Below are positions 8,635 to 14,493 of a stretch of DNA of 64,000 bases, piece after piece. The stretch lies in assembly GCF_046105845.1 (NCBI RefSeq), contig NZ_CP151004.1, one strand, 5' to 3'. Origin of the DNA: Escherichia coli (GTDB lineage: Bacteria > Pseudomonadota > Gammaproteobacteria > Enterobacterales > Enterobacteriaceae). A program made the position numbers and the translations under genes. Position 1 is the stretch's first letter. Every line of letters begins with the position of its first letter. The notes below the pieces were generated by a model. It was not told the origin of the DNA. It was given only the letters and a program-made list of their open reading frames with translations, and did no database searches.

Positions 8635-9767
8635 TTATCAATAACGTCAAACTGGTGCTGGAAAATGAAGTGGTGCACGGTTCACTGGAAGTACAGGATG
8701 GCGAAATTCGGGCCTTTGCCGAAAGCCAGAGCCGCCAGCCGGAAGCGATGGACGGCGAAGGTGGCTGGCTACTGCCCGGACTGATTGAGCTGCATACCGA
8801 CAACCTCGATAAATTCTTCACCCCGCGCCCGAAAGTCGACTGGCCCGCCCATTCGGCGATGAGCAGCCACGACGCGCTGATGGTGGCAAGCGGCATCACC
8901 ACCGTACTGGACGCCGTGGCGATTGGTGATGTGCGCGACGGCGGCGATCGGCTGGAGAATCTGGAGAAGATGATCAACGCCATCGAAGAGACGCAGAAAC
9001 GCGGCGTCAACCGCGCCGAGCACCGCCTGCACCTGCGCTGCGAACTGCCGCACCACACCACGTTGCCGCTGTTTGAAAAACTGGTGCAGCGCGAACCGGT
9101 GACGCTGGTATCGCTGATGGACCACTCGCCAGGCCAGCGCCAGTTCGCCAATCGCGAGAAGTATCGCGAATATTATCAGGGCAAATATTCCCTCACCGAT
9201 GCGCAGATGCAGCAGTACGAAGAAGAGCAATTGGCGCTCGCCGCACGCTGGTCGCAGCCAAATCGCGAAACCATCGCCGCAATGTGCCGCGCGCGACACA
9301 TTGCCCTCGCCAGCCACGATGACGCCACGCACGCCCACGTTGCCGAATCTCACCAGCTTGGCAGCGTGATCGCCGAATTTCCCACCACGTTCGAAGCGGC
9401 AGAAGCCTCGCGCAAGCATGGCATGAACGTGCTGATGGGCGCGCCGAATATCGTGCGCGGCGGTTCGCACTCCGGCAACGTGGCGGCCAGTGAACTGGCG
9501 CAGCTTGGCCTGCTGGATATCCTCTCTTCCGACTACTACCCCGCCAGCCTGCTCGATGCGGCATTTCGCGTCGCCGATGACGAGAGCAACCGCTTTACGC
9601 TGCCGCAGGCGGTGAAGCTGGTGACTAAAAATCCGGCGCAGGCGCTTAATCTTCAGGATCGCGGAGTGATTGGCGAGGGCAAACGCGCCGACCTGGTGCT
9701 GGCGCATCGCAAGGGCAACCACATTCATATCGACCACGTCTGGCGTCAGGGTAAAAGGGTGTTCTGA
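8631..9767 (+). CDS. phnM: Amidohydrolase-family PhnM (ribosyl-phosphonate triphosphate diphosphohydrolase)
   Basis: ORF track 378 aa; operon context. Confidence 0.95.
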
Positions 9768-10746: not shown

Positions 10747-11505
10747 ATGAGCCTGACCCTCACACTTACTGGCACTGGCGGCGCACAGGGCGTTCCCGCA
10801 TGGGGCTGTGAGTGCGCGGCCTGCGCCAGAGCGCGGCGCTCACCGCAGTATCGCCGCCAGCCATGCAGCGGCGTCGTGAAGTTTAACGACGCGATCACCC
10901 TGATCGACGCCGGGCTGCACGATCTCGCCGATCGCTGGTCGCCCGGATCGTTCCAGCAGTTTTTGCTGACGCACTACCATATGGATCACGTGCAGGGGCT
11001 GTTTCCGCTGCGCTGGGGCGTGGGCGATTCGATCCCGGTCTACGGCCCGCCGGATGAACAGGGCTGCGACGATCTGTTTAAACATCCGGGCCTGCTTGAT
11101 TTCAGCCACACGATGGAACCGTTTGTGGTGTTTGATTTGCAGGGGTTGCAGGTCACGCCCCTGCCGCTCAACCATTCGAAACTCACTTTCGGCTATCTAC
11201 TGGAAACGGCACATAACCGGGTGGCGTGGCTGTCTGACACCGCAGGCCTGCCGGAAAAAACGCTGAAATTTTTACGCAATAATCAGCCACAGGTAATGGT
11301 GATTGATTGCAGCCACCCACCGCGCGAGGATGCACCGCGTAATCACTGTGATTTAAACACCGTGCTGGCGCTGAATCAGGTTATCCGCTCGCCACGGGTG
11401 ATTCTGACCCATATCAGCCACCAGTTTGATGCGTGGCTGATGGAAAACGCACTGCCGTCGGGGTTTGAGGCGGGGTTTGATGGGATGGAGATTGGGGTGG
11501 AGTGA
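10747..11505 (+). CDS. phnP: Metallo-beta-lactamase-fold phosphodiesterase PhnP
   Basis: ORF track 252 aa; HxHxDH motif ([10 protein letters not shown]). Confidence 0.95.
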
Positions 11506-11539
11506 TGGGTGAGGGGCGATGCCTGCTCCATACCCAACA

Positions 11540-11869
11540 TCATCGCCCATACTCATCTTCCATTCTCCGCTCTTCATCCTCCAGTTGCCGACGCTCCTGA
11601 TCAAGCTGGCGTTGGCGATCGTCCAGCTGCCTGCGGCGATCTTCAAACTGGCGGCGGCGATCGTCATATTGTCTGCGCCGATCGTCGTTCACTTCACGCT
11701 GCCAGCCGTCGTCGTGCGAATCTTCATAGTCTCGCCCACGGTCAGGGTTATAAGCATCGTTAATCGCCTGCTGAATATTGCCAATGGTGTCGTCGATAAT
11801 ATCGGCCTGGGCCGGAACGGTAGACAGCGTGAGCAGGGTGAATAAAAGAAATAGCGGAAAGCGTTTCAT
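11540..11869 (-). CDS. yjdP: YjdP, secreted highly charged repeat protein
   Basis: ORF track 109 aa; N-terminal signal peptide MKRFPLFLLFTLLTLSTVPAQA; GAGG RBS 8 nt upstream; DDRRRQ-type repeats. Confidence 0.8.
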   Translation of the reverse strand: MKRFPLFLLFTLLTLSTVPAQADIIDDTIGNIQQAINDAYNPDRGRDYEDSHDDGWQREVNDDRRRQYDDRRRQFEDRRRQLDDRQRQLDQERRQLEDEERRMEDEYGR

Positions 11870-11937
11870 TAGCCAACCTCAAAAAGAAACTCTATCCACA
11901 TTAGTCATTACTCATCCATGCAAGTAGTGGATGAATC

Positions 11938-12255
11938 TCAATTTCTCCGCTGCTCTATTGCCGTAATCGCCTCCACGCGTTGTTGATGACGACCGCCTTC
12001 GTACTGCGCGCCCAGCCACGCATCCACAATCATTTTTGCCAGTTCGAGGCCAACCACTCGTGAACCAAAAGCCAGTGCAACTTCACTGGCGTAATGCGGA
12101 TAATCAGTGCGCTCTGACGACCTGGTTTCTTTATCAATCCCCTCACTCATTGACCATGAATAAAAGGCTGGCACAGCAACGCAGAATCCTGCGGTGCCAG
12201 CGACATGACCGCCCATTGCTCCGGTACGTTTTTTAAAAAGAAACATCGGTTGCAT
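11938..12255 (-). pseudogene. rpiB: rpiB remnant (ribose-5-phosphate isomerase B) with diverged N-terminus and internal in-frame deletion
   Basis: ORF track 105 aa; C-terminal 43 aa FGSRVVGLELAKMIVDAWLGAQYEGGRHQQRVEAITAIEQRRN and segment SSERTDYPHYAS match RpiB as remembered, but the catalytic middle segment and native N-terminus are absent. Confidence 0.7.
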
Positions 12256-12507
12256 TGATAAATTGTGCTCAGTATTTGCCGAAGTACAATATATATAATA
12301 AATATATAAAATACCTCATATTATTTGCAGAGATAATAAACTCGCGTACTTTTCCCTCTTCAGCACAAATGCCTAATAAAATGGCTCGCTCCGCTCACAC
12401 TTCCACTTATTAAAGTCGCAAATTCCCAATTATGATAACGCCAGCTTCAAATGACGTATTTTGCATGGACTACATATTTACGACATAAATGATAAATGGA
12501 GATTTAT

Positions 12508-14493
12508 ATGAATAACTCTCGGTTATTCCGTTTGAGCAGGATTGTTATTGCGTTAACTGCCGCCAGCGGCATGATGGTAAATACCGCTTACGCAACAGAT
12601 GAAGCGAAAGCCGCCACTCAATATACCCAACAGATTAATCAGAATTACGCCAAATCATTACCGTTTAGCGATCGTCAAGATTTTGACGATGCCCAGCGTG
12701 GATTTATCGCCCCGCTGCTGGATGAAGGTATTCTGCGTGATGCGAACGGTAAAGTTTACTACCGCGCAGACGATTACAAATTTGATATTAATGCCGCTGC
12801 GCCGGAAACCGTAAACCCCAGCCTGTGGCGTCAGTCGCAAATCAACGGTATTTCTGGCCTGTTCAAAGTCACCGATAAAATGTATCAGGTGCGCGGCCAG
12901 GATATCTCTAACATTACGTTCGTTGAGGGCGAGAAAGGCATTATTGTTATCGACCCGCTGGTGACGCCGCCTGCCGCAAAAGCCGCACTTGATCTTTACT
13001 TCCAGCATCGTCCGCAAAAACCGATTGTTGCTGTGATTTACACCCACAGCCACGCCGACCATTATGGCGGTGTGAAAGGCATTATCTCTGAAGCGGATGT
13101 TAAATCCGGCAAAGTGCAGGTGATCGCTCCGGCAGGCTTTATGGACGAAGCCATCAGCGAAAACGTGCTGGCGGGTAACATCATGAGCCGCCGTGCGCTC
13201 TACTCTTACGGTCTGTTACTGCCGCACAACGCGCAAGGCAATGTGGGCAACGGCCTGGGCGTGACGCTGGCAACGGGCGACCCGAGCATTATTGCACCGA
13301 CTAAAACTATCGTCAGAACTGGCGAGAAGATGATTATCGACGGCCTGGAATTTGACTTCCTGATGACTCCGGGTAGCGAAGCGCCAGCCGAAATGCACTT
13401 CTATATTCCGGCCCTGAAAGCCCTGTGTACCGCCGAGAACGCCACGCATACCCTGCACAACTTCTACACTCTGCGCGGCGCGAAAACCCGCGACACCAGC
13501 AAGTGGACCGAGTACCTGAACGAAACGCTGGATATGTGGGGTAACGACGCGGAAGTACTGTTTATGCCGCACACCTGGCCGGTCTGGGGCAATAAGCATA
13601 TCAATGATTATATTGGTAAATATCGCGATACTATCAAGTACATTCACGACCAGACCCTGCACCTGGCGAACCAGGGCTACACCATGAATGAAATCGGCGA
13701 CATGATTAAGCTGCCGCCTGCGCTTGCCAATAACTGGGCCAGCCGCGGCTATTACGGTTCTGTCAGCCACAACGCCCGCGCGGTGTATAACTTCTATCTT
13801 GGCTATTACGACGGTAACCCGGCTAACCTGCATCCGTATGGTCAGGTGGAGATGGGTAAACGTTACGTGCAGGCGCTGGGCGGTTCTGCCCGCGTTATTA
13901 ACCTGGCGAAAGAAGCGAACAAGCAAGGTGATTACCGCTGGTCGGCAGAACTGCTGAAACAGGTGATTGCCGCCAACCCGGGTGACCAGGTCGCGAAGAA
14001 TCTGCAAGCGAATAACTTTGAACAGCTGGGCTATCAGGCCGAGTCCGCCACCTGGCGCGGTTTCTACCTGACCGGCGCGAAAGAGCTGCGCGAAGGGGTG
14101 CATAAATTCAGCCACGGCACCACCGGTTCCCCGGACACCATTCGCGGAATGTCGGTCGAAATGCTGTTCGACTTTATGTCCGTTCGCCTCGATAGTGCGA
14201 AAGCCACGGGTAAAAATATCAGCCTGAACTTCAATATGAGCAACGGCGATAACCTCAACCTGACGCTGAACGATAGCGTGCTTAACTACCGTAAAACGCT
14301 GCAACCGCAAGCCGACGCCTCTTTCTACATCAGCCGTGAAGATCTGCATGCCGTGCTGACCGGACAAGCCAAATTGGCGGATCTGGTAAAAGCGAAGAAA
14401 GCCAAAATTATTGGCAATGGCGCGAAACTGGAAGAAATTATTGCCTGTCTGGATAATTTCGATTTGTGGGTGAATATCGTAACCCCAAATTAA
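12508..14493 (+). CDS. yjcS: YjcS, metallo-beta-lactamase-fold alkyl/aryl sulfatase
   Basis: ORF track 12496..14493; ATG 12508 gives 661 aa with signal peptide; HSHADH motif. Confidence 0.9.

Follow-up and report, generated by a model that had tools for sequence, protein, structure and literature searches.

The locus considered here lies between yjdP and yjcS in a 64-kb stretch of Escherichia coli DNA, referred to below as the window. In K-12 MG1655 the interval between these genes spans 7,270 bp and holds rpiB followed by alsR-alsB-alsA-alsC-alsE-alsK (b4084–b4090); in the window it spans 638 bp, all of which can be accounted for. The rearranged DNA is called the scar, a term that anticipates the interpretation we favour. 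The features are as follows, with window coordinates and K-12 rpiB numbering.

11540–11869, minus strand: yjdP, a 109-aa ORF, the intact left flank of the scar
11870–11937: yjdP–rpiB spacer, 68 bp, unchanged
11938–12255, minus strand: 105-aa chimeric ORF, the one ORF of appreciable length between the two genes
11938–12075, minus strand: rpiB 3′ fragment, nt 313–450, residues 105–149 and the stop codon (blastn against K-12)
12070–12075, minus strand: proposed junction of a 159-bp in-frame deletion, one copy of CTGGCT (AGCCAG on the plus strand)
12076–12145, minus strand: rpiB 5′ fragment, nt ~84–153 of a block spanning 84–163, encoding IDKETRSSERTDYPHYASEVA
12146–12152: proposed junction of a large deletion (~6.55 kb) from rpiB codon ~26–28 to the end of alsK, a few filler or unassignable bases
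12153–12205, plus strand: remnant of the alsK 3′ end, with last codon CCA (12153–12155), stop codon TGA (12156–12158) and hairpin
12167–12178 and 12190–12201: stem arms of the hairpin after the alsK stop codon (inverted repeat I6)
12206–12283: 78-bp segment private to the scar, carrying the ATG of the 105-aa ORF (12253–12255)
12284–12507, plus strand: AT-rich yjcS upstream region, conserved, outside the scar
12508–14493, plus strand: yjcS (alkyl sulfatase), the intact right flank

Both flanking genes are readily recognised. In tblastn comparisons with K-12, YjdP is 98% identical and YjcS 98.6% identical over 661 aa, and RefSeq gives the label yjdP to the left-flank gene in every scar-type genome fetched. 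The spacer next to yjdP falls within a 569-bp block that matches K-12 at 98.2% identity. The original prediction held that the D-allose operon, about 7 kb in K-12, is missing here and that only about 630 bp remain; the measured lengths bear this out, with 6.5 kb of als genes absent from the window and no comparably short interval of about 0.6 kb in K-12.

Alignment with K-12 places the retained rpiB pieces in collinear order and in the same orientation. Read from the yjdP side, the scar consists of rpiB nt 313–450, the 159-bp in-frame deletion, rpiB nt ~84–163, a short filler, the alsK stop codon with 52 bp of downstream hairpin, and 78 bp of scar-only DNA, after which the yjcS upstream region begins. 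The 3′ fragment differs from K-12 at a single position in 138 bp. In K-12, the missing 159 bp are flanked by two copies of the 6-bp sequence CTGGCT (Leu-Ala), at ...GCACTGGCT and ...GTGCTGGCT, and the join, which had been guessed to fall at the similar sequences VALA and VLA, coincides with this direct repeat. The 5′ fragment is more diverged, with 8 differences in 70 bp as against 1 in 138 (Fisher p = 0.002), but the match of window 12066–12145 to K-12 rpiB is secure (88.8% identity, blastn E = 1e-24). Matches of rpiB from other genera to the window end at 12145–12148. At the ~6.55-kb junction, alignment with K-12 revealed a few filler bases and no recognisable microhomology; short direct repeats are present at the 159-bp deletion and not recognisable at the large one. 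No IS element, inverted-repeat ends, integrase or tRNA was found at the junction. Excision mediated by an IS element or an integrase was considered and rejected, there being no such element at the junction, and the 151-bp junction region, which occurs once per genome, not being a repeated element.

Across the large junction the sequence continues into the end of alsK. The hairpin piece aligns over 52 bp, at 79% identity, with the bases directly downstream of alsK in K-12, and the local alignment score of 49 compares with a shuffle maximum of 26. The hairpin folds in both alleles, the stem having changed on both sides (K-12 GTTGGCAC/GTGCCAAC, window GCTGGCAC/GTGCCAGC). Binding of RpoN holoenzyme and NtrC to the K-12 yjcS/alsK spacer in vitro has been reported (PMC8743547). 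A candidate sigma-54 promoter in the hairpin (TGGCAC...) was discarded on inspection, its GG–GC spacing being one base below consensus. A search of Rfam for an RNA gene in the interval returned only a noise-level match, outside the interval.

The original prediction had also drawn attention to an AT-rich stretch of 240 bp before yjcS. The low G+C content is real, at 33% for 12256–12495 against 52.6% for the whole window, and 29–38% in the yjcS upstream region (12284–12507). From 12284 onwards, however, this is ordinary yjcS upstream DNA that lies outside the scar: identity is 94% both with K-12, starting at 12284, and with O157:H7, starting at 12288, and B2 strains have the region too.

Between the hairpin and this conserved region lies the 78-bp segment, which is absent from K-12, from two B2 als+ strains and from O157. 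In blastn searches of complete E. coli genomes, a 151-bp junction query matched 1,575 genomes at a single site each, with at least 80% coverage in 1,569, and all 40 of the rows sampled were scar-type. A 'distant' blastn search of the complete E. coli genomes found no copy of the 78-bp segment outside scar genomes. With 7-base words, blastn gave no significant match in the als region, the O157 island or 80 loci of other genera, and Smith–Waterman alignment with shuffles on candidate regions produced no source; the yjcS-proximal end, which by eye resembles an O157 intergenic region, was not significant by the latter method. A weak similarity to rpiB nt 34–50 is not accepted as its origin. A model of simple deletion does not account for these 78 bp.

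That similarity is nevertheless the starting point for an alternative in which one complex multi-junction rearrangement, for example by replication template switching, takes the place of sequential deletions. On this view the 78 bp would derive from the 5′ part of rpiB, since decayed, and a copy of the alsK hairpin would have been placed in the middle of rpiB. The motif GTTTCTTTTTAAAAAAC in the 78 bp resembles rpiB nt 34–50, a match equalled by 1 of 300 shuffles and whose next-best target is the rpiB gene of the closest relative, while GGTCATGTCG, at the boundary between the 78 bp and the hairpin, agrees with rpiB nt 25–34 at 9 of 10 positions and has TGTCG in common with the K-12 hairpin flank. 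Moreover, the rpiB-like blocks are spaced by 85 nt instead of 36, the excess approximating the size of the hairpin piece. These matches are, however, short and A+T-rich, and when the target is widened they lose significance (score 23, shuffle maximum 30). The two motifs also stand in the wrong relative order to be jointly collinear with rpiB, and the 159-bp deletion bears the clean signature of independent slippage. We consider a single complex rearrangement unlikely, and retain sequential deletions as the preferred reading.

The direction of the change is indicated by other genera. A scan of species-level genomes with PhnP as the query, in which all the genera returned lay outside Escherichia, found the order phnP-yjdP-rpiB-alsRBACEK at 18 loci in at least six genera, including Citrobacter amalonaticus, Klebsiella, Raoultella, Cedecea, Lelliottia and Huaxiibacter, among others. 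Since this order is kept in other enterobacterial genera, the presence of als is taken to be ancestral and the state of the window to be a loss. Compared with K-12, in which rpiB-alsRBACEK occupies the same slot, the flanks are collinear and the rpiB and alsK pieces stand in K-12 order and orientation around a missing interior; gone are ~6.55 kb (alsR to alsK and the 5′ end of rpiB with its promoter) and 159 bp of rpiB, and the window has the 78-bp segment in addition. The converse, that the short interval is ancestral and that K-12-type strains gained rpiB-alsRBACEK by insertion, is barely credible. Its attraction is that yjdP adjoins yjcS, with no als genes, in Pseudocitrobacter and Kluyvera georgiana, and that the slot is a hotspot which houses another island in O157:H7. 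The rpiB pieces, alsK stop codon and hairpin in the window are, however, leftovers of the cluster, chance similarity being excluded by the E-value for the 5′ part of rpiB (1e-24) and the hairpin score (49 against 26), and many genera have the complete cluster at this position. Neither the Pseudocitrobacter nor the Kluyvera loci matched 11870–12510 significantly, and because no rpiB remnant was detected in them we regard them as separate cases.

In O157:H7 the yjdP–yjcS slot is filled by a D-lyxose/D-mannose isomerase sugar island, ~9.4 kb of unrelated genes (hybrid sensor kinase, ABC transporter, isomerase, aldolase, kinase and response regulator) without any rpiB or als remnant. DNA shared with the window resumes at 12288, at most 4 bp from the point at which K-12 resumes. 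In strain EC291, the same locus carries an IS1-bounded deletion.

The scar is widespread. It was found, at 80% coverage or more, in 1,568 of 5,426 complete E. coli genomes (~29%), and the junctions are the same in 042, W, 1190, 2013C-4974, 2013C-4225, CFSAN061770 and PE164. An assembly or sequencing artefact can be dismissed outright, the same junctions having been obtained in 1,568 independently finished genomes. The best match to the scar of the window among the complete genomes is 98.4%, from which it follows that the window's own strain is outside this collection. The loss had been proposed to mark a strain-level difference; the loss is real, but it is far from private to one strain. The scar haplotype now occurs in several phylogroups; its copies vary by ~2% among themselves and differ from als+ alleles at fixed positions. 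The polymorphism is common and old, and at the level of gene content it is already known: alsBACEK is absent from E. coli W, a lack to which its reported inability to catabolise allose is attributed (PMC3032704), and has been reported missing from PCN033, a group D strain that clusters with 042 (PMC4578781). E. coli W (phylogroup B1) carries the scar described here.

The 105-aa ORF was expected to end with the RpiB C-terminus and to contain SSERTDYPHYAS, and the ORF list and BLASTP bear out both points. In the BLASTP alignment with K-12 RpiB, ORF residues 38–62 correspond to RpiB 29–53 and residues 63–105 to RpiB 107–149, with a single gap of 53 residues; the central segment is missing, as had been claimed, and there is no full-length match to intact RpiB. 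The N-terminus, described beforehand as unrelated, indeed lacks RpiB homology over its first ~37 residues, which are translated from the former intergenic hairpin and the filler segment. Set against the intact RpiB structures from E. coli (1NN4 and 2VVR), residues 107–149 are identical to the C-terminal 43 residues of the ORF and residues 29–53 are similar to ORF 38–62, whereas residues 1–28 and 54–106 have no counterpart.

Asp9 and His10 (GxDHxG) form the N-terminal substrate- and phosphate-binding motif of RpiB. Both are lost from the ORF, and the deletion of residues 54–106 removes Cys66, Thr68, His99 and Asn100 as well. In EcRpiB, Cys66 is the catalytic base and the H99N substitution lowers kcat 26-fold (PMC4783025). 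The Pfam family PF02502 (~138 model positions, ~145–150 aa) is far from covered: ORF residues 61–97 match positions 102–138, the last 37 of the model, at E = 6e-9, and ORF 38–61 align with positions 26–49 at E = 1.6, leaving 37 residues with a significant match. RefSeq nevertheless names the product 'RpiB/LacA/LacB family sugar-phosphate isomerase'. The same scar, junctions and annotated 105-aa product are found in 042 (WP_001183290.1) and in W, 2013C-4974 and 2013C-4225 (WP_001183287.1), whose 318-bp ORFs differ from that of the window by point differences only, at 2–5 residues.

These losses weigh heavily against the ORF being a functional, if shortened, RpiB/LacA/LacB family protein or a novel small protein based on the C-terminal helices of RpiB. 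Such a function might be suggested by the persistence of the reading frame, which is uninterrupted in each of the seven alleles compared, has a main 90% protein cluster of 912 members, and is kept open in most database copies, where PGAP/RefSeq treats it as a CDS and not as a pseudogene. The pattern of substitution is less encouraging. The pN/pS ratio of the ORF is 0.44, compared with 0.06 for yjdP and 0.09 for yjcS; phnP was left out as a control because its values were implausible, probably through a coordinate or indel problem. Among the seven alleles, 11 of 17 segregating sites in the ORF are non-synonymous, a proportion that fits neutrality (binomial p = 0.20) and is incompatible with constraint like that on the neighbours (p = 8e-5). 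Weak constraint could still be present, the ratio being below 1 and based on 17 sites only. The database versions include frameshifted, truncated and further-deleted variants, with independent frameshifts and secondary deletions.

Signals for expression are similarly wanting. The sequence before the ATG at 12255 contains no Shine–Dalgarno motif, no promoter-like site was found for the ORF, and the alsR–rpiB regulatory spacer has been lost together with the promoter and operator region of rpiB. Within the ORF the coding strand contains two hairpins, and a T-run follows each of them. On this evidence a functional product is very improbable, and the ORF, judged from its sequence, is most likely a non-functional pseudogene remnant and not an enzyme.

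One database entry, a 158-aa protein designated P0002, combines the scar N-terminus with an intact centre and, if real, would show the order of the deletions. Its sole source is one metagenome contig of 2.8x coverage (NODE_1799 of ERZ507965), whose end lies 15 bp ahead of the ORF, and it is absent from the complete genomes. Scar-like sequence gives way to B2-like sequence inside a 24-nt tract that is identical in both alleles, and P0002 is a probable assembly chimera.

Every element named in the original prediction is present where it had been placed, and its interpretation as a deletion scar is supported by the collinear rpiB pieces and by the retention of the alsK stop codon with its hairpin. 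We conclude with high confidence that the interval is a scar, produced when the rpiB-alsRBACEK D-allose cluster was lost, and that the ORF is a dead remnant. At least two events are visible in the scar. A large deletion of ~6.55 kb would have run from rpiB codon ~26–28 through alsR, alsB, alsA, alsC and alsE and taken alsK too, save its last codon and stop; we infer illegitimate recombination, since there is no recognisable microhomology at the junction. A small in-frame deletion of 159 bp inside rpiB, between the two copies of CTGGCT, may have arisen by slippage or a microhomology-mediated process, as these repeats suggest. The order of the deletions, like their mechanisms, is something we infer. 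The ORF would then have come about by accident: its reading frame opens at an ATG within the 78-bp segment, crosses what was once the alsK hairpin and goes on into the two rpiB pieces, both of them in frame. The scar probably arose once. A more elaborate proposal is that the slot is an old, selectively maintained three-state polymorphism (als, lyxose-type island or scar), that the scar persisted and spread across phylogroups by recombination, and that the ORF, in which a de novo N-terminus derived from an intergenic hairpin is joined to RpiB C-terminal helices, is perhaps expressed as a new small protein; we think this most improbable.

The expected consequence is the absence of D-allose transport and catabolism and of the allose-inducible ribose-5-phosphate isomerase B. 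The source strain would be unable to use D-allose, would depend on RpiA alone and would have lost the AlsE-dependent route for D-allulose. The absence of RpiB is seen at this locus within the 64-kb window, and a second als or rpiB copy could be present elsewhere in the source genome. More than 1,500 complete genomes carry the RefSeq product name 'RpiB/LacA/LacB family sugar-phosphate isomerase' for what is most likely a dead remnant, and metabolic reconstructions could be misled by it. The locus neatly illustrates a slot for sugar catabolism that varies within E. coli; it is of little practical value and raises no new question.

The phnM-phnN-phnO-phnP genes lie on the plus strand of the window, and the interval between yjdP and yjcS measures 638 bp, as against 7,270 bp in K-12 MG1655, where, as the original prediction had it, the interval contains rpiB together with alsR, alsB, alsA, alsC, alsE and alsK. 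Sensitive blastn searches and pairwise alignments against K-12 allowed the interval and its flanks to be subdivided.

Features of the yjdP-yjcS interval (window positions)
11507-12075: yjdP, a 68-bp spacer and rpiB nt 313-450; 98.2% identical to K-12, the rpiB part with 1 difference in 138 bp
11540-11869, minus: yjdP
11938-12255, minus: 105-aa ORF
12070-12075: single CTGGCT copy, junction of a missing 159 bp
12076-12145: rpiB nt about 84-153; 8 differences from K-12 in 70 bp
12146-12152: a few unassignable bases, no K-12 identity
12153-12205: last alsK codon and TGA stop, then the K-12 post-alsK hairpin; 79% identical over 52 bp
12206-12283: 78-bp private segment, no K-12 identity
12284 onward: AT-rich yjcS upstream region, 94% identical to K-12 and common to O157:H7 from 12288
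12508-14493, plus: yjcS

The alsK-end and hairpin piece aligned with a score of 49, against a maximum of 26 for shuffled sequences, and the hairpin folds in both the K-12 and the scar alleles, with one stem pair altered on both sides. In K-12, the CTGGCT hexamer flanks both ends of the stretch corresponding to the missing 159 bp, which marks this deletion as in-frame with 6-bp direct repeats at its ends. The larger deletion takes out some 6.55 kb, starting at rpiB codon about 26-28 and reaching the penultimate alsK codon. The AT-rich 240 bp before yjcS, which had been tied to the scar, are mostly conserved regulatory DNA, since they are common to K-12 and O157:H7; in vitro binding of RpoN holoenzyme and NtrC to the K-12 yjcS upstream spacer has been reported (PMC8743547).

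The 78-bp segment was not found in K-12, two B2 als+ strains or O157:H7, and neither blastn against the K-12 als region, the loci of other genera and the complete E. coli genomes nor shuffle-tested alignments revealed a source. A 17-nt stretch within it shows a weak likeness to rpiB nt 34-50 (equalled by 1 of 300 shuffles), as does GGTCATGTCG to rpiB nt 25-34; their relative order is wrong for joint collinearity with rpiB. Were they real, the scar would be the product of a multi-junction rearrangement and not of a clean deletion.

With PhnP as the query anchor, we collected 80 loci from other Enterobacteriaceae, none of them from Escherichia. rpiB-alsRBACEK lies on the phnP/yjdP side in 18 of these, from Citrobacter amalonaticus, Klebsiella, Raoultella, Cedecea, Lelliottia, Huaxiibacter and several Enterobacter-named isolates; 16 have the full phnP-yjdP-rpiB-alsRBACEK order, yjdP being undetected in L038 and L067, and one locus, that of Klebsiella grimontii (L043), runs on into yjcS. 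In combination with the remains of rpiB and alsK in the window, these loci make loss the only reasonable direction of change, in support of the original reading of the interval as an als/rpiB deletion. In three Pseudocitrobacter loci (L009-L011), yjdP abuts yjcS and the rpiB remnant is absent. Their identity to the window is 94-96% for PhnP (matching 10747-11502), 63-65% for YjdP and 80-81% for YjcS, a disparity that suggests that phn genes were recently exchanged between Escherichia and Pseudocitrobacter.

The 105-aa ORF runs in frame from an ATG within the 78-bp segment through the former alsK hairpin and both rpiB pieces. BLASTP against K-12 RpiB, the sequence of which was verified against the K-12 record, aligned ORF residues 38-62 with RpiB 29-53 and residues 63-105 with RpiB 107-149, the two blocks around one 53-residue gap agreeing with the earlier description. 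The ORF is without Asp9, His10 and RpiB residues 54-106, including Cys66, Thr68, His99 and Asn100; in E. coli RpiB, Cys66 is the catalytic base and the H99N substitution cuts kcat 26-fold (PMC4783025). The Pfam match is limited to the last 37 residues. Reading of the window sequence revealed no Shine-Dalgarno motif upstream of the ATG, a separate analysis gave no promoter-like site, and the alsR-rpiB control region is deleted. The coding strand contains two internal hairpins, each followed by a T-run. One was made by the 159-bp deletion, which puts TTTTGGTT right after a pre-existing 7-bp stem, GCCAGTG/CACTGGC (12071-12090, minus), so that a terminator-like site now lies within the remnant ORF.

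Across the seven alleles compared, the ORF has 17 segregating sites, 11 of them non-synonymous, and pN/pS is 0.44, compared with 0.06 for yjdP and 0.09 for yjcS; the non-synonymous fraction fits neutrality (p = 0.20) but not neighbour-like constraint (p = 8e-5). Frameshifted, truncated and further-deleted versions are present in databases. In the complete genome of the scar-type strain BS-04 (L094 2283-2771), a secondary deletion takes part of the hairpin and the 78-bp segment and reaches the AT-rich region. What is left is a 99-aa ORF whose N-terminus differs, which shows ongoing erosion of the remnant. The product that RefSeq names 'RpiB/LacA/LacB family sugar-phosphate isomerase' is most likely a dead remnant and the name misleading. 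A 158-aa ORF in which a scar-type N-terminus is fused with the intact centre and C-terminus of RpiB was encountered on one metagenome contig (L008 1-500, ERZ507965 NODE_1799) of 2.8x coverage, the end of which lies 15 bp before the ORF; the changeover between scar-like and B2-like sequence falls inside a 24-nt tract identical in both alleles. This form is in none of the complete E. coli genomes, and we regard it as a probable chimera.

The scar state, defined as coverage of at least 80% of the scar, was found in 1,568 of 5,426 complete E. coli genomes, and a 151-bp junction query reached at least 80% coverage in 1,569. Some rpiB sequence, intact or remnant, is present in 4,979; subtracting the scar genomes leaves about 3,400 taken as als+, an estimate by difference and not a genome-by-genome assessment of rpiB/als intactness, and about 450 (5,426 minus 4,979) have neither. 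Among the strains with the scar are 042 and E. coli W. W belongs to phylogroup B1, and PCN033, a group D strain clustering with 042, is reported to be without alsBACEK (PMC4578781), so the scar is not confined to one phylogroup. The junctions, identical in all scar alleles examined, argue for a single origin. Synonymous diversity is lower in the scar ORF (0.037) than in the flanking genes (0.09-0.14). The 5' rpiB fragment differs from K-12 far more than the 3' fragment (8/70 versus 1/138 bp; Fisher p = 0.002), and we infer that yjdP-side DNA up to the 159-bp junction may still recombine with als+ alleles, whereas the scar-private part would be unable to do so and would retain its accumulated differences.

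The locus varies in other ways. O157:H7, of the class with neither scar nor rpiB, has in place of als a 9.4-kb island (L003 12428-21578 in F6294; L007 12428-22315 in OkiPb01695) encoding a hybrid sensor kinase, a sugar ABC transporter, a D-lyxose/D-mannose isomerase, a ketose-bisphosphate aldolase, a kinase and a response regulator; common DNA resumes at most 4 bp from the K-12 boundary (window 12284-12288). The OkiPb01695 island is of the F6294 type with an added GNAT acetyltransferase, and phnO of F6294 is frameshifted (L003 10758-11193). In EC291 (L004 11288-12051), an IS1 copy sits immediately upstream of yjcS and is flanked on the opposite side by yjdM. The entire phn operon is gone, along with yjdP and the als region; this is an independent IS-bounded deletion. 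An approximately 111-bp G+C-rich palindromic repeat (CCCCTCACCCC...GGGGAGAGGG...) lies between yjdP and phnP in K-12 (L001 14232-14342), W and some scar-type strains and is absent from the window (11506-11539), 042 and strain 1190, which have a 34-bp spacer only, a second indel polymorphism that does not follow scar state. In 1162invT2, a 27-bp in-frame repeat expansion near the 5' end of yjdP (L006 about 9300-9364) lengthens the gene from 330 to 357 bp. In APEC IMT5155, alsC has an internal stop (L005 13730-14710), so an als+ map is no guarantee of function.

E. coli W, which has the same scar as the window, was shown to be unable to catabolise allose, a defect ascribed to its lack of alsBACEK (PMC3032704). 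With the PCN033 report, this means that variable presence of the als operon was already known. The fine structure of the scar, of which the papers found gave no description, adds little to that presence/absence polymorphism. The scar is a common, old gene-content polymorphism, already recognised.
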